A stretch of 64,000 nt of DNA from an uncultured Chthonomonadaceae bacterium (GTDB lineage Bacteria > Armatimonadota > Chthonomonadetes > Chthonomonadales > Chthonomonadaceae): assembly GCA_963817895.1 (NCBI GenBank), contig CAWFQB010000014.1, positions 384,001 to 448,000 of the forward strand, given 5' to 3'. The position numbers and the translations under genes were made by a program. The notes under the pieces are model-generated. The model was not told the DNA's origin and did not search any database. It saw only the letters and a list, made by a program, of their open reading frames with translations. Of the stretch, positions 28,073 to 39,627 are shown one piece after another. How positions within the stretch are numbered: position 1 is the stretch's first letter; every line of letters starts with the position of its first letter.

Positions 28073-28477
28073 GTCTGCTAATTCGTCATCTCACGCCTGA
28101 ATCCTTCTCGCCTTTTCCAACGCTCCTCATTTTCGATAGGTTTGCCGTATAACGCATAGTCGTCGTAATCTGTGGCTGCAACGACGACGCAAAGGACGGG
28201 ATAGTAGAGTTGCTGATTTTCGTCCAGTTCGTTGCGGCGCGTATTGCCTGTGATATGAATCTGTGGAAATATTAAAGTTTAATTTTGCCAGGCAGTTTTA
28301 GCAGGATTTCGTCCGCGAATGTTGAAATATAACCTGAAAGTAGTTATTTTTTATGAATAACGGTATCGTTCTTGCATAGAGCGAAAAACCGCAACCGCAA
28401 ATCACTACCAGCGTCTATTGCCTTATACCCGGTAAAATCTATCAGGTAAAAGGCAACTCTTAGAAGTGAGGAATCCT

Positions 28478-29062
28478 ATGCCCGTCACACTTACCCCTGA
28501 CCTGATGAAAGAATATGTGGACTTGTTCCACGCCTGCGTGATTGTGCCAGCCAAAAAGCCGGAGGTGATAGCGATTGCGAAGCAAATTATTGCCAACCAG
28601 TCTCGCTATGAAATCGTGGCGCAGGCGACGCATGTGCCCTGGTATGTGATTGGCGCCATCCATAATCTGGAAAGCAGCCTGGACTTTCACACGCACCTGC
28701 ACAATGGCGATCCGCTTACGGCGCGAACAGTCCATGTGCCGGCGCATCGGCCTGTCGCGGGACAGCCGCCATTTACATGGGAATTCAGCGCGGAGGACGC
28801 CCTGCGCTACGACAGTCTGGCCGACAAACCGACATGGACGCTTGCCGAAACGCTGTACCGCATTGAGGGTTATAACGGATTCGGTTATCGCCATCGTCAG
28901 CCGCCCGTGCCGTCACCCTATCTGTGGTGTTGGTCGAACCAATACAGCAAGGGCAAATATGTGGAGGATGGAAAATTCGACCCGAATGCGGTTTCCAACC
29001 AGTGCGGGGCGGCCACCCTGCTGCATTATCTGGCGTTCACAGGCGTAATTACGCCGGCGTGA
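28478..29062 (+). CDS. Lysozyme-family protein (COG5526-like), no signal peptide
   Basis: IHNLES, LHNGDPL, HVPAHRP, EGYNGFGY, SPYLW, GKYVEDG. Confidence 0.85.
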   Translation: MPVTLTPDLMKEYVDLFHACVIVPAKKPEVIAIAKQIIANQSRYEIVAQATHVPWYVIGAIHNLESSLDFHTHLHNGDPLTARTVHVPAHRPVAGQPPFTWEFSAEDALRYDSLADKPTWTLAETLYRIEGYNGFGYRHRQPPVPSPYLWCWSNQYSKGKYVEDGKFDPNAVSNQCGAATLLHYLAFTGVITPA

Positions 29063-29084: not shown

Positions 29085-30113
29085 TCAGGAAGCGTAAACT
29101 TTACTGCTCACGACCGCTTCCACTTCCTGACTCTGGGTCGCGAGGTTGGCGGCAGTCGGGGTTGCTGTTATGTCGGGCGTCGGGGGCGCGGCCATTTTCG
29201 CCATCGCTTCGCTGAGTTTTTGCGTCCAGCTTGTCAGTTCCGCGGACAGAATATCTTCGGTAAAGCTGACCAGTTTATCCCGGTTGTCCGGCAGCGCGCG
29301 CTCGGCCTCGCTCAACTCGTTGCGCCACCAGCGATCCACGCGCGCCAGGCTGTTGCCGCTTTGATTGTACTGCGCCAGCGTGACCTCGATTTGCCGCTGC
29401 TGTAGATAGCTGACGGCGGCGGTCGTCACCGCCGCTGTCAGCGGAATCCACAGGGGCTGTTTGAGCAGCGCGAGTACGGTTCCCGCCGTACCCGCCGCAA
29501 TGCTGATTCCATGCAGCCATTGCGCGTGACGGTTCAGTTTCTGAACCCGGCGATGGTAGTACGCGGCCTGATCCGTCAGGCGCAGGGAAACGTAACGATC
29601 CGGCGTCATGGGAAAGGCTTCCGCGTTCGTATTTTCTAAACTCTCTTCTGTTCCGGCCTGCGCTGCGCTTGCGGGCGGCGGCGCTTGCAGGATAGCGTCG
29701 CCCAATCCCGCAGAAATCGCGTTCAGGCGATGGTAGAGCAGGGAGGGTTCGGCATGGCCCCGGTATTCGCCCGCCTGCATCAGATAGCCGTAAATTTCCC
29801 GCTGCGTGGCCTGCGCGCCCGCGCGTAACGCGAGCCACTTTTCACCCGGTTTGAAGTGACTCAACGCGCTCAACAGCCCGGACGTGGTGGCCGTCACCAG
29901 CACAATCGCAGCGGTGAAAACCGCGTCCGGCACAAACGTCATTTTCCAGAGGGCATTGGTTGGCGGCGTTTGTCGCCATGCCATCAGCGTCGCCAGCAGC
30001 GTGGCCCCAAGGCCGAGCAGCAGCAGCGCGCCCTGATAGCGCCGAAAATTCCTTTGCTGCCGCCCCGCGTTGTAGTCATAGCTTGCATATAACTTCCAAG
30101 CATCCGTTAGCAT
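29085..30113 (-). CDS. Double SLATT (DUF4231-like) four-TM membrane protein
   Basis: Two TM hairpins; KWLALRAGAQATQREIYGY; YVSLRLTDQAAYY; YNQS. Confidence 0.8.
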   Translation of the reverse strand: MLTDAWKLYASYDYNAGRQQRNFRRYQGALLLLGLGATLLATLMAWRQTPPTNALWKMTFVPDAVFTAAIVLVTATTSGLLSALSHFKPGEKWLALRAGAQATQREIYGYLMQAGEYRGHAEPSLLYHRLNAISAGLGDAILQAPPPASAAQAGTEESLENTNAEAFPMTPDRYVSLRLTDQAAYYHRRVQKLNRHAQWLHGISIAAGTAGTVLALLKQPLWIPLTAAVTTAAVSYLQQRQIEVTLAQYNQSGNSLARVDRWWRNELSEAERALPDNRDKLVSFTEDILSAELTSWTQKLSEAMAKMAAPPTPDITATPTAANLATQSQEVEAVVSSKVYAS

Positions 30114-30146
30114 TGTCGTGGTCTACTCCTTCAGGCATTGGGAGAT

Positions 30147-30971
30147 TCAGGCGTTGCCGATCAGGGCGCGCGTCAAAGCATCCGCGGCATCGGCAAGCGT
30201 ACTCACAGTCAAATGTTCGCCGGCAGCGATTTCCGCAAGTTCGGCATCGGCTGGCGTGAGCAATGGCTGTTGTTTAGTTGGGGTGAGCGCAGGCTGTAGT
30301 TTGGCCTGCGCGATCTGATCGGCCAGCCGTCCGGTTCCTTGCAGCGCGATCAGCGGCCAGCCGCGCCGAACGCAGGACAGGGCTTCCTGTCTGGCAATGT
30401 TTCCGCCATTGAACAGCAGCGCGGCCACCGGGCGCAATCCGGCTTTTTGCCCCGCCAGCGCGGCAGCCAATCGGAACATGGTTTCGGTTTCGCTCCCCCA
30501 CTCCCCGGTTGGCGTCAGCGCGAAATGCGAATGGTTGGGGTCGAGACGGGCAAGTCCGGCGGTTTCCGCTTCCGGCACATCGTTAAAACCACAAATTTCC
30601 GCCATTTGCGCCTTGCCGGTAAACGTCACCGCGCCGAATGGAGCCACGCCAAGCATAATCGGGCGTGGCGTTTCTTCCGCCCCCAATCTGCCCACGATCT
30701 CCATAATGCCCGACTGTGTGCCGCCGTCTATAATCAGAACACCCCTGTCCGCCACTATGGGCAGAATGGCATTGCGAAAACAGGCGGCGATTTCGGTTTT
30801 CAGCCCCGATTCCATCCCGGCAGCCCCGCCAAAAATCATCAACACGGCCTGCGGCGCGGCGATTTCAAGCGCATCCAGAATGTCCCCGGCTTCGGCATCG
30901 TCGAGAGTAACCACCATACGCGCCCGCCACTCCCCGCCGAAACTAATTTCCTGTGCCGCCATCAACGCCAT
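30147..30971 (-). CDS. SLOG superfamily protein, LSDAT/TRPM-like clade (start approximate)
   Basis: FGGA, IIDGGTQSGIM, LGVAP, LDPNHSHF, WGSET, NGG, GTGRLAD. Confidence 0.85.
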   Translation of the reverse strand: MALMAAQEISFGGEWRARMVVTLDDAEAGDILDALEIAAPQAVLMIFGGAAGMESGLKTEIAACFRNAILPIVADRGVLIIDGGTQSGIMEIVGRLGAEETPRPIMLGVAPFGAVTFTGKAQMAEICGFNDVPEAETAGLARLDPNHSHFALTPTGEWGSETETMFRLAAALAGQKAGLRPVAALLFNGGNIARQEALSCVRRGWPLIALQGTGRLADQIAQAKLQPALTPTKQQPLLTPADAELAEIAAGEHLTVSTLADAADALTRALIGNA

Positions 30972-31004
30972 TCGGTTTGTCTTCCATTCCCTGTAATGAA
31001 AATA

Positions 31005-31072
31005 GCCCTCAACCCCCGCCCCTTCTCTCAAAAAAGCCTGGGAGAAGGGGAGTCACTTGTTTGGGAGAGGGG
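31005..31072. repeat. REP-like palindromic element (CCCTCAACCCC..CCCCTTCTC../..GGGAGAAGGGG)
   Basis: Near-identical copies at 37218-37264, 37271-37317 and 44868-44931. Confidence 0.85.
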
Positions 31073-31108
31073 TGTCCTTCCCTGCGGGTGGACGCCATCC
31101 AGCGCGGG

Positions 31109-33728
31109 CTACCGTACCGCCACGTTTGCCCGTTCGTGAACGACTATTTGCGGGTTCTGCGTCAGGGCGTCCGCCTCATCCTCGCGTCCAAGCGCGCGCA
31201 GCAGGGAGGCGTATTTGTCGCGGCAGTCCGCGGTTTGTTTGTGTTCGCCTCCCAGAGCGGTGGTTAAAATGGAAAGGGCGCGGCAATAGTGGCCTTCGGC
31301 CTCCTCATATTTCCCCTGCTCGTCATACATGGAAGCCAGAACTCATATTCACCTCGGCGACAAAAGGATGCTCCGCGCCACAGACTTTCTCCAGAATGGC
31401 AAGCGATTTGCGGTACAGGGTTCCCGCTTCCACATAGCGCTGAAGCTGCTCGCACACTTCGGCCAGATTGTTCAGCATCATAGCAGTCAGGGGATCATCG
31501 GGGCCAAGTGTTTTGTTAAAGATGTCATACGCGCGGCGATAAAGTGGCTCCGCTTCCTCTATGCGCCCCTGTTTATGAAGCAACATCGCCAGATTGTTGA
31601 CGCTTCCAGCAGTCAATTCATTGTCCGGGCCGAGCGCAGTTTCGTAGATATGCACAGCGCGTTGGCACAACGGTTCCGCTTCCACGTACCGCTTCTGATC
31701 CGTGTACAGCGCGGCAAGGGTACTCAAGCACTCTGCGACATGGGGATGGTCGGGGCCGGAATGTTCCTCCTCTATATGCAATGCGCGAGTGTACAACGAT
31801 TCCGCTTCCGCATAACGCTGCTGACGGTAATACAGCGAGGCCAGACTGAGGCAACGCGCGGCAACGGCGGGGGCGTTGGCACCTAATGATTTTTCCCGCA
31901 AGGCCAGCGCCTTCGCCATCAGCGGTTCGGCAAGCGCGTAGTACGCCCGGTCATACAGATAATCGCCGAGTTAAATCAACAATTCTACGGCTTCTTCAAA
32001 CTCGTAATTCTCCGCCGCAACATGGTCGGCGCAAACCAGCGCGTGGGACAGCAGGCGCTCACAGACAGGCCAATTTTCAACCGTCACTTCGGGAAACGCC
32101 AGACTGACCGCCCTCACCGCCCGCTCCGTCCACAATTCGCGCTGCGTGTCGTCGAGATTCTGGCGCGTCACGGCCTGCACCAGACGGTGAACGTCGTAGC
32201 TGTTGGACTGCCGTTGCCGATGCGCCAGCGAGTAGCGCGTCAGGGGCAGCAGCAGATCATCCAGAACCAGTTCGTCTTCGTCGGCTCCGTCCAGCGCGTC
32301 TGCCAATTTCGCGCCAAGCCGCGAACCGGCTTTGATGAGTAGTTCCAGCGGAATACGTTCCGGGGCCAGAAACGCGCTCAGATTAAGCAGTTCTACGGAA
32401 GCCGGGGATTTGCGCTGTATCAACTGGAAGTTGATGTCCCACGTCGTGGCGACCGAATGGGCGTAATCGCCCTGTACCGGGTCCTGCGCGTTGAGCAGGG
32501 CCAGACGCCGCTTCTTAAAGGATTTCAGGTAGCTTTGAAACGGCGTATCGTTTTGCCCGACATACGCGGCGGCCTGCTCCAGCGCGAGGGGCAGTCCGCC
32601 CAGTTCCACGCCTAACTGTTTCGCCGCCGCGCACTCCTCCGGCTCGGCGTTTTCGCGCCCCGTGCTTTTCAGCAGAAACGCCTGCGCTTCGTTCGGCGAC
32701 AGTTCCGGCAAGGTCAGCGGCATGGCGATCCCCAGTGCGCGCACATCCTGCGAGCGCGTCGTCAGCAATACGCAGCCACTGTGAATTACAGGCAGAAACG
32801 GCTTCACGGCAGCCGGCGCGTCCACATTATCCAGTATCAGCAGCCATTTTTCGTTGCAACTGAGCCACTGCTTCACCGCCTCCCGCGTTTCGTCCTGATT
32901 CGACGAGTCCTGTTCCGGCAAATTCAGCAATTTGGCAATGGCAACGAAATCAGTTTTTAATTCCTGCTCGTTTTCCGCCCGCGCCCACAAAACCGCGCTG
33001 TATTCTTCCCGGTACTGGTACGCATATTCGACCGCCATTTGCGTCTTGCCGATGCCGCCTAATCCGGTCAGCGCCTGTATCGCCGTTGTGCGCCCGCCGC
33101 CGATAAGCGCCTGATGCAGCGCGGCCAGTTGATCTTCGCGCCCCGTGAAAAAGGCGAGGCGCGGATGCGGCACCTGAAACGGCGCATTGGCGGTTGGGAA
33201 ATCGGGACGGGAACTCTCCGCGCTGAGAGAGGATGGGGGCGCGGCAACAACCGCCTGCGCTTCCGGCTTGCGACTGCCCAGGAACGAGGGGCGCGAGGTC
33301 GGCTTGGCGCGCTCCGTAACCTTGATCTGCGCCAGCAGGATTTCGCGGGCATCCTGCTCCTCCTTTCCAACAAGATCAATGTACACGATCTGCCGCAGCA
33401 GGCCGGTCAGTTCACACTCTTCCACCCTAATCGGTATCAGCTTGCGCCCCACGCTGGTCGGGTCGTCCGCAAACGCCGCCGCCCATTCCGGGCGCGTGAA
33501 AATAGAAGCGATATACGTGGGCGACAAGAGCGCCAGTGTCCGCTCGGCGTTTTTCGCAGCCTCATCCATTTCCACGACGAAGTTGCTGCCCGCCCCAAAG
33601 TCCCACGCCTGCACAATCGCCGTATAGCCCGCTTCTTCCAGTTCCCAGGCAACCCACTCAGCCCAGTGCCGATCTTTCTGGTTGTAACTGATAAAAAAAT
33701 CTTTAGTCGCTTTGCCCGGAAATGCCAT
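31109..33728 (-). CDS. TIR + NB-ARC (STAND) + TPR NLR-like protein (frameshifts near 31975 and 31335)
   Basis: TIR DFFISY..LLSPTY..RPEW; Walker A GLGGIGKT; Walker B LLILDN; GLPLAL; VHRLVQ; 42 aa TPRs (GPDHP, NNLA). Confidence 0.9.
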
Positions 33729-33802: not shown

Positions 33803-36800
33803 CTAGCGCCTTATGACTGGCAGCGGAACGTTTTTGTCGGCATCCGACAGGCCGAAAAGATTGGGATGCTGTCCGGCATACTTCGCGCTCACTTGCTGCG
33901 GAACCCAGTAGTCCAGCGCGCGCAGCAGAACGGTATCGTTTGTGTACAAATCCGGGGTCATGCCGCCGTTCAGCGCTTTTAGAATGTAGTAGGTGAACAC
34001 GCCGTGCTTGAGGTCGTCGGCTTCGTAACTGACTTCAGTGGACGCGGAAGCCGCGAAAACCAGAATGTTGTTTTTCCAGGCCGAGCGCATCGTATCGGTT
34101 TGCATTTGAAAGCGCGTGTTGGGCGCAGCATCCAGAGTCTTGCTGACGCCGCCTGCAAAGCAGTGGTCTACCATCAAAATGATATGCTTCGCGTCCACCT
34201 TCGCCAGTTGGTCCAGAATTTCCTGCCAGGAATAGCCGTTTTCAACCGTGTTCCCGCCCGCGCCATTGTCATGCGTGATAACGTTGACGGGAGCCAGGTA
34301 AAAGGTCTTGCGGCCCGCGTCATCGTTCCCGGTAAAGCCGTGACAGGAGAAATACAGCAGCACGGTGTCGGACGACTTCACGTTGACGAGCAACTCCTTC
34401 AATTTAGTTTGGATGTTTGCCTTTGTGGCCTTCTGGTCGTCCAGCAACTCGGTATGCACTTCGCTGAACAGCTTATTGCCGTTCATCCGAAAGAATCCCT
34501 CCATGTCCTTCGCGTCGGCGGCGGCATAATTTAGATGCAGATCCTGGTTGATGTAATCACTGATGCCCACCGAAAGCATATACAGATGCGGTGGTTTGGA
34601 ACTGCCGCTCCCGTCCACCACCACGTCCACAGCATCATCGCTCATGCCGCTGTCATTTGTGGCGAAGATGTGAATGGTATTCTTGCCCGAATTCAGATTG
34701 TCAACTACGCGCAGCCGTTCCCCGGTATTCCGGTCGTATGTTTTCGATGTTTTCGTTTCCAATGCTCTTCCTCTGCCGGTTGCAATAACGGCGAAGGTTT
34801 TGGAATGGTTGAGGGCGGTCTGCACGTTGAGCAGCGGGTCGGGCGTCTGGTAGCGGAGATGCAGGGCGATCTTTGAGGCATCGGTGTGATACGCGCCATC
34901 CGCGTCGAGCGGCAACACTTTTCCGTTTACCGTCACGCTCAGATTACTTTTGTCCAGTTTGGGAACGACGGCGATTTGCCGGGACAGAGGCGTGTCCAGA
35001 TCGGGCGCTTCTTTGCCATTGTACACGGCAGCGAGAGCAGATTTCAGGACGCCTGTTTTGCCCACCTGCGCAATCACATCCGGCTGGTAAAATTGCGGAG
35101 ACTGAAACAACTCGCGGAATTCGGCGGGCCTGTCCAAGCCCCGGTTGATGTGCCAGCCCAAAACGTAATCGCCTGCCGGGGACGCGGCATAACAGCCGTT
35201 TTGCGCCCACGCCGCCCACACGCCCCCCTCGCCCGCGAAAATGCCGAGCAGAGCGGCAACGGAGGGAGAGGGCTTTTGCGGACTCACGATTGCGAACGTG
35301 GAAGTATCCAACTGCTGATAGGCGCGTCGTTGCGCGTTCAGGCGCGGGGGTTCCGCGCTCGTCGCGCCCATGTCTTCGGGGCTGGCGGAACCGGCGCGCG
35401 CGGCGGATTTCAAACTCCACAGACGGACGGTTTGATCCACGCCGCCGGACGCGACATACCGGCCCTGCGGGTCTACAGCCAGCGCGAGTACCGGCCCCTC
35501 ATGCCCCTCGAAATCCACCATTTTGTGGGCGCGTTGGCCGCTGATGTCGTACACGCTCAAATACAGGTCGGAACCGACTACCACTCTCTTGCCATCGGGC
35601 GTGAAACTGAAACAGCGCAGGCGGTCCGTTTCGCTCAATGTAATGCGGTGCGTGGCCCGCCCGCTTGCGTCGCGCACAATCACCCCGCTATGATCGGGCA
35701 TCTCCTGCAACGAAAATGGCTCGGTACCGCGTTTGCCGCCACCTGCAAGCGTATGCTGCGCTTCCGTCCACTCGTACTTTGCCGCGTCGAATTCCGGGTC
35801 GGGAATACCGGCGTCCAACTCAAACGCATGTTCCACACTGGCATGTTCCAGTTTCGCGCTGCCGAACGAGTTGCCCCACGCCACGCGCCTGCCGTCGGCT
35901 GACCACGCGACGGTGAACACCGGTTCGCCCGGCCCCTGGAACGAGCGCAGCTTTGCCCCGGTTTTCGCGTTCCACAGATACACCATGCCGTAGGCGTCGC
36001 CACTGGCGGCGGTTTCGCCGTCCGACGCAAATGCCACGCTGTAAATCGTCGTGTTGTGCCATTTGAAAATCTGAATCTGGCGATTGTTTTCCAGCGACCA
36101 GACGCGGGCGGACACATCCGCGCCCCGACTGCCGCTGCCGCTGATCAGGCGCGTGCCTTTGCTGTTGAAAGCCAGACAGGTGACGCTGTCGTTTTGCACC
36201 GTGAACGGCGACTGCTCCACAAACTTCTGCGCGGGGTTTCGCAGGTGAATAATGCCGTCTTCCGCGCCGTAGGCCAGCAGCCCCTGCGGATACTGCTGCG
36301 AGACAGGGGCCACCGCCAGGCACAAAATGTCGCTGCCACAGGTGAATGTGCGTTTTGATTTCGCGTGATGGGCGGCATCCAGCTGCCAGATGCGCAACAC
36401 GCCCTGATGCTCTTCGTCATTCACGCGCCAGCTTGTGGCCGCGACCCAACTGCCGTTCGCGCCGAACGCCACGCCCGTCATATACTCGTCTTCGTCCACC
36501 GTCAGCGTTTGCGATACGCGCGCGCCGGTGTTCCTGCCGCCGAATATACTGCCCCGGTTATCAACCGCGCTGTCGGCTGTGTTCGCGCCGGTATTCGCGC
36601 TTGCATTCTTAGTTTTCGATCTGGCGGACTTGCCGCCCCGCGAGGCTGCTGTCGAGGCTCCACAATACTACTTTGTGGTCGGTTCCGCAGGAGGCGAGCA
36701 GGCGGGCGTCCGGGGAATAGGCCAGGCTCGTAATCGTGCCTTTGTGTCCCTTCAGCCGCTGCGTCAGCGCGCCCGTAACCACATCGGTGAGCAGAATATC

Positions 36801-37181
36801 GCTGTCGGCTTTCGCGTCCCTGCCGCTGGAACCCAGCGCCAGTTGGCGCGGCTGTTTGGGATTCAGCGCGGCGGCGTGAAATAGTCCCTCAAACCCGTCG
36901 CCGATCTGGTAGCGCCACGCATCGGCATGGCCATCCGTCAGCGGATGGACGCGCGCCACTTTGTCCGAGCCGCAGGAGATCAGCCGGACGCTGTTCAGGT
37001 TGGCAGGGTCGGCGGGAGTGAAAATCAGGCTATGTACCGCGCCGATATGCCCGCCCGTTTCCATACGGAATCGAACGTCCGGCTTGTCCGTAAGTTCCAC
37101 CTGCGCGCCGCTGCGGATGCCGGCAAGCGGCAGCGCAACCAGCGCCAGAAGCGCCCACCGATTTTTGTCAGCTAACAACAT
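33803..37181 (-). CDS. Exported WD40-repeat + caspase-family (peptidase C14) protein (frameshift near 36655)
   Basis: RBS aaggag and signal peptide; many GH..WD repeats; LSVGISDY, YFSCHG, VDHCFAG dyad, HGVFTY, QHP. Confidence 0.88.
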
Positions 37182-37217
37182 CCTGACCTCTCCTTTACTT
37201 TTCAACAAAGCACTACA

Positions 37218-37317
37218 GGCCCTCAACCCCTGACCCCTTCTCCCAAGTTTGGGAGAAGGGGAATCTATTAGCCTCAAGCCCTGGCCTCTTCTGCCAAATT
37301 GGGAGAAGGGGAACCTG
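37218..37317. repeat. Tandem pair of REP-like palindromes
   Basis: ccccttctcccaa..ttgggagaagggg hairpin plus a degenerate second copy. Confidence 0.85.
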
Positions 37318-37329
37318 ATGGAAAAGGCT

Positions 37330-38001
37330 CTAAAACGAGAACCCTAATCCAAGCGCGAAACGGTTCAGGTCGGCGGAACGGTCGCGCAGATACCATTGAC
37401 TGGCGTTGATGCTGATGCGCGGCGCGATTTCTATCGATCCCGATACAAAGAAAGAAAAATCCGATGTGTCCTGCCCTGCGCTGACATCGCGCAGCAGACC
37501 CAGTCCAAACTCCACCGACCAGCGTGGACGCGCCCGACGCGCAAACTGCTGCGAAGTCAGGTCGTACACCACAAAACCGCTGTACGTATGGCCGGAGGCC
37601 AGCTTGTTCGTGGAACTGATGTAGCTTAACTGAACGCCGATTTGCGGCGTGAAGAAGGCGCGGCCCTGAATCTGGTACAGATCGCTGCTGCCCTTGTTCC
37701 AGTACCAGCCGCCGATTTCCAGCGCGCTGCGTGTGCGTGGCAATTTTACGCCCACGTCGCCCGCAACCAACAGGCCCGAGTCCGAAACCGCGCCCGCAAC
37801 CGTGTCGGTGATGCGTCCGCCCGTCGCGAAAATCGCTACCGGGTACAGGGATAAGGAGCCATAGGGAACCGCTTTCTGGCTGGCAGTGGCTTCGTAACGC
37901 GCATTGCCGGTGAAGCCCGCGAATTGCGCCCGCGCGGGAGAAATCGAAGCCGCCCCCGCCATCAGCGCGAGCAGGGGCGCGGTTCCATGCGAAAACTTCA
38001 C
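37330..38001 (-). CDS. Putative outer-membrane beta-barrel protein
   Basis: Signal peptide ending ARA; alternating amphipathic strands; C-terminal LGLGFSF Bam-type signal. Confidence 0.7.
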   Translation of the reverse strand: MKFSHGTAPLLALMAGAASISPARAQFAGFTGNARYEATASQKAVPYGSLSLYPVAIFATGGRITDTVAGAVSDSGLLVAGDVGVKLPRTRSALEIGGWYWNKGSSDLYQIQGRAFFTPQIGVQLSYISSTNKLASGHTYSGFVVYDLTSQQFARRARPRWSVEFGLGLLRDVSAGQDTSDFSFFVSGSIEIAPRISINASQWYLRDRSADLNRFALGLGFSF

Positions 38002-38056
38002 GTGTCGCTCCTTCCGGTTGTTCAAACAGATTGTTCATACAGGCGGCGTGAAGCCG

Positions 38057-38699: not shown

Positions 38700-38820
38700 C
38701 AAGTAGGTTGTCAAGTTGTCAGGCGTTTTCATGGCAGCCTTTACGCGCCTTCCATACGCTTGATTCAGGCGAAGGCGTAACCGGACAACCTGACAACTAA
38801 CAACCTGACAACCTACTTGT
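38699..38820. repeat. STRR-like inverted repeat array, same family as 3172-3285
   Basis: acaagtaggttgtca pairs with tgacaacctacttgt; the 18-mer cctgacaactaacaacct is shared with 3260-3277. Confidence 0.8.
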
Positions 38821-39382
38821 TCACGCTGATGCTGCCCAGAACCACGCTTGCGCTGCGTTCGCGCACAAAGCAGCCCTGGCCGTCGGCCTGACTGCCTGCC
38901 GCGCCCGCGCCTGTATTGAATTCCACGCACACCACATCACCGTCCTGCGCATGGTCGAAAATGCCGACATGCTGCGGGCGCGGGCCCCCATTGAACGAAA
39001 ACAGCACCGGATCGCCGGGATGAATGGCCGATGCCGTCGTGAATGGTTTCCAGACGCCTTTCTCCTTCGCGGCATCCATGATAGAGCCGCAGGAGGGTGA
39101 CGGATCGAAGTAGTGGGGAATGTCGTCGGCCAGAATGGACTGAAGCGTGGCGTTGTCCGTCGCCTGCCCGCTCAGAAACGCGTAGGCTTTCATGTAGCAG
39201 AACGCCACGCCCATCGCGCAGTAGGGTTCCCCCTGCAAATCGAAGAAATGCTCGATCTTGTCAATCTCCGTGCCGTCATTGTGTCCGGTCGCTTCGTGCA
39301 GGTGGCTGGCGGCAAAGGCATGCGCGATTTCCAGAGCTTTCGGCGCAAGCTGCGCGCCGGTAATGTGAGTGGTAGCGGTCAT
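38813..39382 (-). CDS. CHAP-like amidase/peptidase, no signal peptide
   Basis: PYCAMGV, PGD.VLF, HVGI, VEFNT; RBS aggagg. Confidence 0.8.
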   Translation of the reverse strand: MTATTHITGAQLAPKALEIAHAFAASHLHEATGHNDGTEIDKIEHFFDLQGEPYCAMGVAFCYMKAYAFLSGQATDNATLQSILADDIPHYFDPSPSCGSIMDAAKEKGVWKPFTTASAIHPGDPVLFSFNGGPRPQHVGIFDHAQDGDVVCVEFNTGAGAAGSQADGQGCFVRERSASVVLGSISVNK

Positions 39383-39627
39383 AGAGTCCTCCTGTTCAAG
39401 CAGAATATTCTTCATCAATATTCGCGTCTTTACAGAAAACTCCTGCACTTCTTTCAATTCTATAGAAATATTTCTATGAACATACGCGCCATAAGGCTAA
39501 CCCCTGCTGACTTTTAAATGACTCTCGTTTATTTACATGATGTTGGATGATGTCGCGCAGGGTATTCGGTGGAGGCAATTGACGTGGTTTGGCATGGCAG
39601 CGCAACGGGTTTCGCGTGTCGCGGGGT

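Follow-up and report, generated by a model that had tools for sequence, protein, structure and literature searches.

A TIR-NB-ARC-TPR gene beside a split LSDAT-SLATT effector in a Chthonomonadaceae bacterium: a candidate Thoeris-like module with interchangeable triggers

In a 64,000-nucleotide stretch of DNA from an uncultured Chthonomonadaceae bacterium of the Armatimonadota (assembly GCA_963817895.1, contig CAWFQB010000014.1, positions 384,001 to 448,000 of the forward strand; hereafter the window, numbered from its first letter), three neighbouring genes had been singled out as a candidate immune relay in which an NLR-like TIR protein would signal to a membrane effector. In agreement with this preliminary description, the genes are adjacent and co-oriented, all on the minus strand, with intervening gaps of 137 bp (from the stop at 31109 to the ATG at 30971) and 33 bp. 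The first (31109..33728; 872 amino acids when whole) encodes a STAND/NLR-like sensor of TIR-NB-ARC-TPR architecture, with Pfam matches to TIR_2 at residues 11-130 (33339..33698, E 2.2e-34), NB-ARC at residues 198-395 (32544..33137, E 7.8e-13) and TPR_12 (E 4e-64). The second (30147..30971, 274 amino acids) encodes an LSDAT_prok protein, a SLOG domain of the TRPM type by Pfam (E 4.9e-41) and by fold. The third (29085..30113, 342 amino acids) encodes a membrane protein with a double SLATT, a DUF4231/SLATT_3-like unit (DUF4231 E 2.1e-12) plus SLATT_1 (E 2.7e-18); against the NCBIfam models, SLATT_1 lies above its cut-off and SLATT_3 below. All the families proposed beforehand, TIR_2, NB-ARC, LSDAT_prok and SLATT_1/DUF4231, were thus recovered in Pfam. 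Judged from its sequence, the locus is a real, putatively Thoeris-like module that lies outside every validated Thoeris type; its effector class had already been predicted, and its distinctive points are the NLR-type trigger and the split effector.

At the sensor level, the glutamate at the catalytic position of the TIR domain is kept, as had been noticed (Glu81 in the motif FTRPEW, 33486-33488). The NB-ARC domain resembles plant NRC and AfsR structures, and its Walker A and B motifs together with the C-terminal repeats, in a protein that is whole in a congener, place the product among STAND/NLR-like proteins. The claim of an intact STAND ATPase holds for the motifs, namely Walker A (GLGGIGKT, with Lys228), Walker B (LLILDN), LLTTR, GLPLA and VHRL, but the gene as assembled is in three pieces, separated by an in-frame TAA at 31971-31973 and by one extra base, causing a frameshift, near 31340. 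The congener (G002, same contig as locus L005) shows the same gene order at about 80% DNA identity; its sensor is whole, with 872 amino acids, and its SLATT gene carries a frameshift. A further relative (P0044) has a sensor of 872 amino acids, with 85% identity to the window's sensor across residues 1-793. The extra base near 31340 is absent from short-read contigs of related strains obtained in two studies, and one such contig covers 31063-33728 with a gap near 31340 as its sole gap; near-identical contig pieces leave the in-frame stop uncovered. The frequency of such breaks was estimated with 215 open reading frames (ORFs) from 400 kb of another genome of the genus (G001), 102 of which had orthologs in the window's genome. 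Breaks were found in 26 of these 102 orthologs in the window's assembly (36 frameshifts and 5 stops over about 135 kb, or 0.30 per kb), a rate that predicts about 2.6 breaks in the five locus genes (8.6 kb) against 3 seen. Assembly error is the simplest reading of the breaks in the sensor gene. Since about a quarter of the tested conserved genes are broken in this assembly, split genes there are not to be taken for pseudogenes without reads; as stops are the rarer type of error, the in-frame stop may be a real nonsense change. In the PADLOC part of the defence-system search that had been proposed with PADLOC and DefenseFinder, no Avs or NLR model matched the sensor and only weak matches fell in the TIR region (PADLOC 2.0.0, 2023 library); this version contains no model for LSDAT or SLATT. 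The whole congener protein also exceeds the cut-off of the FxSxx_TPR model (389.1 bits against 300; the window fragment reaches 270.6). An FxSxx-COOH system for ribosomally synthesised and post-translationally modified peptides was ruled out, as no radical SAM FxsB above cut-off was found in the genome (81% complete) or in the scanned flanking genes.

Comparison across genomes identifies LSDAT and the double SLATT as halves of one protein, which this genus encodes in two genes. Species genomes were scanned for LSDAT, with 232 relatives found; the best 80 were taken, and 79 were counted after setting the congener aside. A further 80 metagenome loci (the best 80 of 526) were inspected and, being largely redundant, left uncounted. 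LSDAT is fused to a double SLATT in 46 of the 79 non-congener loci, in agreement with the pairing proposed for the window, and the C-terminal halves of 30 fused proteins can be aligned over the full length with the window SLATT (28-40% identity). LSDAT stands alone in the other 33 loci; a SLATT gene is present in the locus in 9 of them, and a TPR-S/MAP3K_TRAF_bd gene lies within 1.5 kb in 13. The possibility that the window pair is a single frameshifted gene was ruled out by two in-frame stops, a ribosome-binding site of its own ahead of SLATT and a longer gap in the congener. The LSDAT-SLATT pairing, with SLATT as a nucleotide-responsive pore, was reportedly predicted by Burroughs et al. 2015 and by Burroughs and Aravind 2020. 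SLATT is also presented as a predicted nucleotide-responsive pore in later accounts (PMC7159879, PMC9503650). The earlier view of the third protein as one with four transmembrane segments agrees with its two SLATT units and with the two helical hairpins of its model, but the hydropathy scan gives two strong segments and one weaker one. No Foldseek match at E 0.001 was obtained between this model and solved structures, where only generic helical bundles appeared (Z up to 9.2), and no sequence relative was found among them. LSDAT is rare, occurring in 2 of 401 genomes of the window's phylum, 13 of 401 from Chloroflexota and 14 of 401 from Myxococcota; none of 65 pattern matches in viral contigs proved to be a relative. 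In a tree built with a quick method the two LSDAT sequences of the genus sit together on a long branch that lacks a supported sister group, and for this reason no donor is claimed.

Other arrangements of LSDAT were also seen. At one locus (L074:7030-10104) a peptidase M50B-like ORF precedes LSDAT-SLATT, either as a true fusion or as a merged call. At others (L013:2641-3132, L083:7197-7703, L104, L124 and L137) a gene for an 8xMP membrane protein comes after a stand-alone LSDAT. In L013, L137 and L083 a TIR(-like)-STAND gene follows this pair in turn, and in L013 and L083 the 8xMP gene, standing between LSDAT and the TIR(-like)-STAND gene, takes the place of SLATT. LSDAT with 8xMP is possibly a second effector type for the same sensor domain. 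In soil Verrucomicrobiota (L006-L027 and many of L085-L164), a recurrent island couples a TPR-S/MAP3K_TRAF_bd protein to a stand-alone LSDAT and also holds genes for TIR-WD40, TIR-YARHG, a small SLATT, patatin, trypsin-TPR-S and an M15 peptidase.

A predicted nucleotide pocket in LSDAT is well supported by alignment and by the structural model (predicted local distance difference test 90.8, predicted template modelling score 0.90). The kinship with the TRPM N-terminus that had been put forward is confirmed, the N-terminal domains of TRPM2 being the best solved matches by profile (E 5.2e-26) and by fold (Foldseek E 8.7e-16, TMq up to 0.81 for the likeness to MHR1/2). Human TRPM2 has been described to contact ADP-ribose through Y295, R302 and R358 (PMC6759353). 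In the alignment these residues fall on Trp158, Met165 and Arg215 of LSDAT; across the 80 loci, the Y295 position is Trp in 77 and the R358 position is Arg in 57. By alignment, LSDAT would keep two of the three named contacts, in contrast to the R302 position, which is Met or Leu in LSDAT; the two proteins also differ in the membrane part, which is SLATT and no TRP pore, and in that LSDAT lacks NUDT9-H. Another pocket residue, Glu196 in the motif GGxxxxxE, is conserved at 79 of the 80 loci. By motif comparison it matches the last residue of the LOG motif PGGXGTXXE, a glutamate described as catalytic in LOG enzymes (PMC4979012) and lacking from TRPM2 in the alignment. This residue is one of the arguments for a decidedly unlikely alternative, in which the TIR signal would act directly on SLATT, as proposed for ThsH, the SLATT protein of type VII Thoeris, and LSDAT would be a modulator, be it a sponge, a threshold setter or a nucleotide-processing enzyme. 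Such a division of labour would fit the response of ThsH to cyclic ADP-ribose (cADPR), with no SLOG described for ThsH in the main text of the type VII survey (10.64898/2025.12.03.692087), the Shaseng SLATT, presented without a SLOG (10.1101/2024.12.27.630466), and the occurrence of LSDAT as a protein of its own in 33 of 79 loci, with a TPR-S-type protein as neighbour in 13. However, in the 46 fused proteins LSDAT is joined directly ahead of the first SLATT helix, as fits a gating domain, and the sensor SLOG of ThsA is likewise described with a pocket glutamate (PMC7272460), so that this residue does not imply catalysis.

The association of LSDAT-SLATT with TIR genes was followed with local profiles. 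A TIR-fold gene lies within 500 bp of the fused LSDAT-SLATT in 15 of 46 loci, co-oriented in 14, and within 1.5 kb in 17 of 46 fused loci and 27 of 79 of all loci. Around the fused loci, TIR domains number 1.51 per 10 kb at less than 1.5 kb, 0.17-0.30 between 1.5 and 7.5 kb and 0.09 between 7.5 and 10 kb, a drop of roughly tenfold with distance. The TIR_2 background is 0.013 per 10 kb (235 matches in about 180 Mb of 38 genomes, those of loci L005-L044 except L035), obtained by a less sensitive search, so that the ratio to the locus density is rough. All 34 neighbouring TIR segments (the congener's included) were confirmed in Pfam as TIR_2, CAP12-type TIR or DUF4062, and the glutamate of the catalytic column is present in all 34. 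They form 17 groups at 35% identity, which indicates that TIRs were recruited repeatedly beside LSDAT-SLATT. Their hosts belong to Chloroflexota, Verrucomicrobiota, Myxococcota, Acidobacteriota, Bipolaricaulota, Ignavibacteriota, Pseudomonadota, Actinomycetota and Nitrososphaerota, and the recurrence of LSDAT-SLATT beside TIR genes that look catalytically intact is therefore met in many phyla. The unpublished genome G096 supplies one TIR positive (the divergent L041) and one genome of the background set. In a replicate with Myxococcota, a TIR gene was found within 500 bp in 8 of 11 further loci, after 3 others had been left out as known or likely repeats. Of the two plasmid records with LSDAT, one carries a TIR-NACHT gene on the opposite strand at a distance of 1.2 kb, and the other has no TIR nearby. 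No p-value is given because related loci are not independent. By these comparisons the linkage of TIR genes to LSDAT-SLATT is real but loose.

Within this linkage, the three-part form with an NLR did not prove to be a conserved unit: only 5 of 79 loci have a TIR-STAND gene within 1.5 kb, the partners being as a rule other TIR proteins. Many of these carry a membrane helix and a WD40, YARHG, PDZ or F5/8 tail, and others are TIR-FGE or small TIR fusions. The expected recurrence of TIR-STAND genes beside LSDAT does hold in that it extends to unrelated taxa. TIR(-like)-STAND genes lie within 3.5 kb at L008 (nSTAND1), L013 (NB-ARC-WD40), L035, L039, L083 and L022, and such partners also occur at L211, L210 and L091. 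The closest parallel, in an archaeon (L035), combines a fused effector with upstream DUF4062-NB-ARC and TPR genes and with downstream TIR-STAND and TIR-NB-ARC-TPR genes. No STAND-linked TIR of these loci is more than 27% identical to that of the congener, from which it follows that the NLR pairing arose more than once. The NLR of the window is, as far as gene neighbourhoods can tell, one of many interchangeable triggers for LSDAT-SLATT.

Two of the loci are of particular composition. In L022:3012-15112, a single co-oriented run contains TIR-nSTAND1-WD40, RyR-TPR-S-cyclase, the fused LSDAT-SLATT, a small TIR fusion and a TIR-WD40 protein with a transmembrane segment between the two domains. In L044:11784-16991, the fused LSDAT-SLATT is followed by a NudE-like NUDIX hydrolase (below cut-off) and three TIR genes, and the hydrolase is possibly a signal-erasing enzyme. 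NUDIX as a regular partner was ruled out, as it occurs in L044 only, the second weak match being a TIR-FGE protein.

The surroundings of the three genes include features that the preliminary description overlooked, namely a repeat that recurs throughout the genome and lies in the 137-bp gap, and a pair of upstream genes of the same orientation that the congener locus also has. The repeat (30999..31062) is palindromic and intergenic, between sensor and LSDAT, and has about 109 copies in the genome. Neither the congener nor a related strain has it in the corresponding gap, and it is probably incidental to the locus. The gap that contains it folds no better than shuffled versions (z -0.21), and promoter and terminator scans stayed at chance level (2 against 4.1 and 12 against 12.7, respectively). 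A second, different genome-wide intergenic repeat lies at about 37219-37270. The first upstream gene (33803..37277, minus strand, by Pfam and comparison with the congener) encodes a WD40-caspase (peptidase C14) and is present as two ORFs (36609-37277 and 33803-36499); in the congener it is whole, with 1167 amino acids, intact His and Cys motifs and a signal-peptide-like N-terminus. It accompanies the locus in the window genome and the congener, and a caspase match occurs in only 1 of the 79 other LSDAT loci. Its signal-peptide-like start, its WD40 repeats and its paralogues elsewhere in the genome disfavour a role as a type IV Thoeris-like effector. The second upstream gene (37330..38025, minus strand), likewise upstream in the congener, encodes a small exported protein that is weakly beta-barrel-like by language-model features. 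Farther upstream, and again also in the congener, a 214-amino acid ORF without a family match (38813-39457, minus strand) resembles, by motifs only, a CHAP-type amidase. On the other side, a 198-amino acid ORF on the plus strand (28466-29062) converges with the SLATT gene and has no Pfam or NCBIfam match. Its nearest Atlas clusters (0.98-0.99) are nameless and mostly viral and its nearest named ones are SLT/GH23 transglycosylases (0.84), so that it possibly represents an unnamed lysozyme-like family.

These surroundings bear on the very improbable reading that the module is not directed against phages at all and works in signalling during envelope stress, in development or between bacteria, possibly together with the exported WD40-caspase, or that it is decaying in this lineage. 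In its favour are the lack of a defence island, the many partner TIRs with a membrane helix and tails of the kinds listed above (WD40, YARHG, PDZ or F5/8), the two breaks in the window sensor and the one in the congener SLATT, and the rarity of in-frame stops as assembly errors (5 in about 135 kb). Nevertheless, the total break rate equals the assembly background, related strains read through the frameshift site and an intact relative of 872 amino acids exists. Moreover, the presence of the module is patchy, as is typical of conflict genes: the five-gene block was found in 2 of 3 genus genomes and not in G001, which is 97% complete.

Among known systems, several share part of this anatomy. As in Thoeris generally, a TIR with a catalytic glutamate (Glu81) adjoins separate effector genes (LSDAT and SLATT). 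In type I Thoeris (ThsB with the SIR2-SLOG protein ThsA) a SLOG domain has been described to read the TIR signal (10.1101/2021.01.06.425286), a role that is here predicted by analogy; the ThsA SLOG belongs to the STALD family and drives a SIR2 NADase (PMC7272460), whereas the window has LSDAT with a membrane effector and no SIR2, and no ThsA model of PADLOC or NCBIfam matched the locus proteins. Type VII Thoeris, described as a defending pair of a ThsB TIR and a ThsH SLATT with canonical cADPR as signal (bioRxiv 10.64898/2025.12.03.692087), and Shaseng, described with two TIRs and a SLATT but no SLOG (bioRxiv 10.1101/2024.12.27.630466), both have a TIR gene adjoining a SLATT effector, and SLATT_1 scores above cut-off here in Pfam and NCBIfam. 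The present locus differs from both in having a TRPM-type SLOG beside a double SLATT and a TIR that forms part of a larger protein with NB-ARC and TPR. The type VII survey removed TIRs in Avs proteins, and its main text does not mention LSDAT or TRPM (bioRxiv 10.64898/2025.12.03.692087). A literature search that covered few subscription journals returned no study of a TIR-STAND protein with LSDAT-SLATT. Avs/AVAST, bacterial NLR-like STAND proteins and plant TIR-NLRs (TNLs) are effector-STAND-repeat proteins. The window sensor shares with them the effector-STAND-TPR architecture and intact nucleotide-binding motifs; it differs from Avs/AVAST and NLR-like STANDs in being accompanied by a separate downstream pair of predicted reader genes.

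Taken with these precedents, the locus may be read as a Thoeris-like relay from TIR to SLOG-SLATT that is here triggered by an NLR, a proposal drawn from gene content to which we give a probability of about 0.5. What is seen is anatomy: domains, motifs, fold, the fusion of the effector halves elsewhere and the repeated adjacency of TIR genes. From it we infer the biochemical steps, the identity of the signal, the contact between the split halves and the anti-phage role. The sensor TPRs would recognise an invader protein and the NB-ARC ATPase would oligomerise the TIR heads, which would cleave NAD+ to give a nucleotide signal. This signal, in the simplest case ADP-ribose or one of its cyclic isomers, would then bind in the SLOG pocket of LSDAT, and the bound LSDAT would open or assemble the SLATT membrane part, leading to cell arrest or death. 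The trigger protein would be interchangeable, here a cytoplasmic TIR-NB-ARC-TPR protein. As the partners are so diverse, and some belong to families described as plain NAD+ hydrolases, ADP-ribose itself may be the signal. This leads to a tentative extension, which we consider doubtful, in which LSDAT-SLATT would be a prokaryotic counterpart of TRPM2, gated by plain ADP-ribose (or one isomer) and able to read almost any TIR-fold NADase, and the NLR would have been turned from an NAD+ depleter into a receptor signalling to a separate membrane effector, as in plant TIR-NLRs. Such a gating would explain the many unrelated TIR partners, the orphan copies and the NUDIX gene beside one copy.

Several observations count against the NLR-triggered relay. 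The TRPM2 R302 position is Arg in none of the 80 LSDAT loci, and the sensor gene may be truly broken in the window strain. No defence island surrounds the locus: PADLOC matches were obtained for 2 of 27 other window ORFs (those of at least 250 amino acids among 43 listed, leaving out the locus genes and overlapping opposite-strand frames) and for 11 of 115 neighbours from 38 other loci, mostly to partial generic domains in both sets. In the available DNA, some of it with short flanks, a TIR-fold gene is missing from the 1.5 kb on either side in 29 of 46 fused loci. Of the 12 new loci in the Chloroflexota replicate, several in housekeeping surroundings, only 2 have a TIR within 1.5 kb, and the 8 Myxococcota positives include 6 from a single orthologous family. 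TIR-STAND genes within 3.5 kb number only 6 of 79. Finally, the TIR-NB-ARC-TPR family is huge (5279 matches among 8000 candidates) and LSDAT is rare, which means that most such NLRs work without LSDAT. This last point favours a serious, if unlikely, alternative: the TIR-NB-ARC-TPR protein would be a self-sufficient, Avs-like sensor-effector that depletes NAD+, and LSDAT-SLATT would be separate, at most an amplifier reading the ADP-ribose by-product or the signals of other TIRs in the genome. That genome has 7 TIR_2 matches against one LSDAT, some neighbouring TIRs are of the CAP12 type or DUF4062, described as NAD+ hydrolases (10.64898/2026.05.01.722283), and the systematic Thoeris survey set STAND-fused TIRs aside as likely NAD+ depleters (10.64898/2025.12.03.692087). 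However, the enrichment of TIRs is at the distance of an operon and not of an island, the gene order is kept in a congener at about 80% DNA identity, and unrelated TIR-STAND genes adjoin LSDAT in other phyla.

The importance of the NLR-triggered relay lies in what it would add to these families. In validated Thoeris systems the TIRs that produce the signal are not part of STAND proteins, and TIRs with a STAND fusion are regarded as depleters of NAD+. If the relay is real, a TIR-NB-ARC-TPR protein that signals to an effector encoded apart from it would serve as a bacterial model for plant TNLs. Its effector would then offer the simplest setting for asking whether the ADP-ribose site of TRPM2 descends from a prokaryotic immune reader. 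For such work the natural split offers a soluble LSDAT sensor of 274 amino acids suited to ligand-binding studies.

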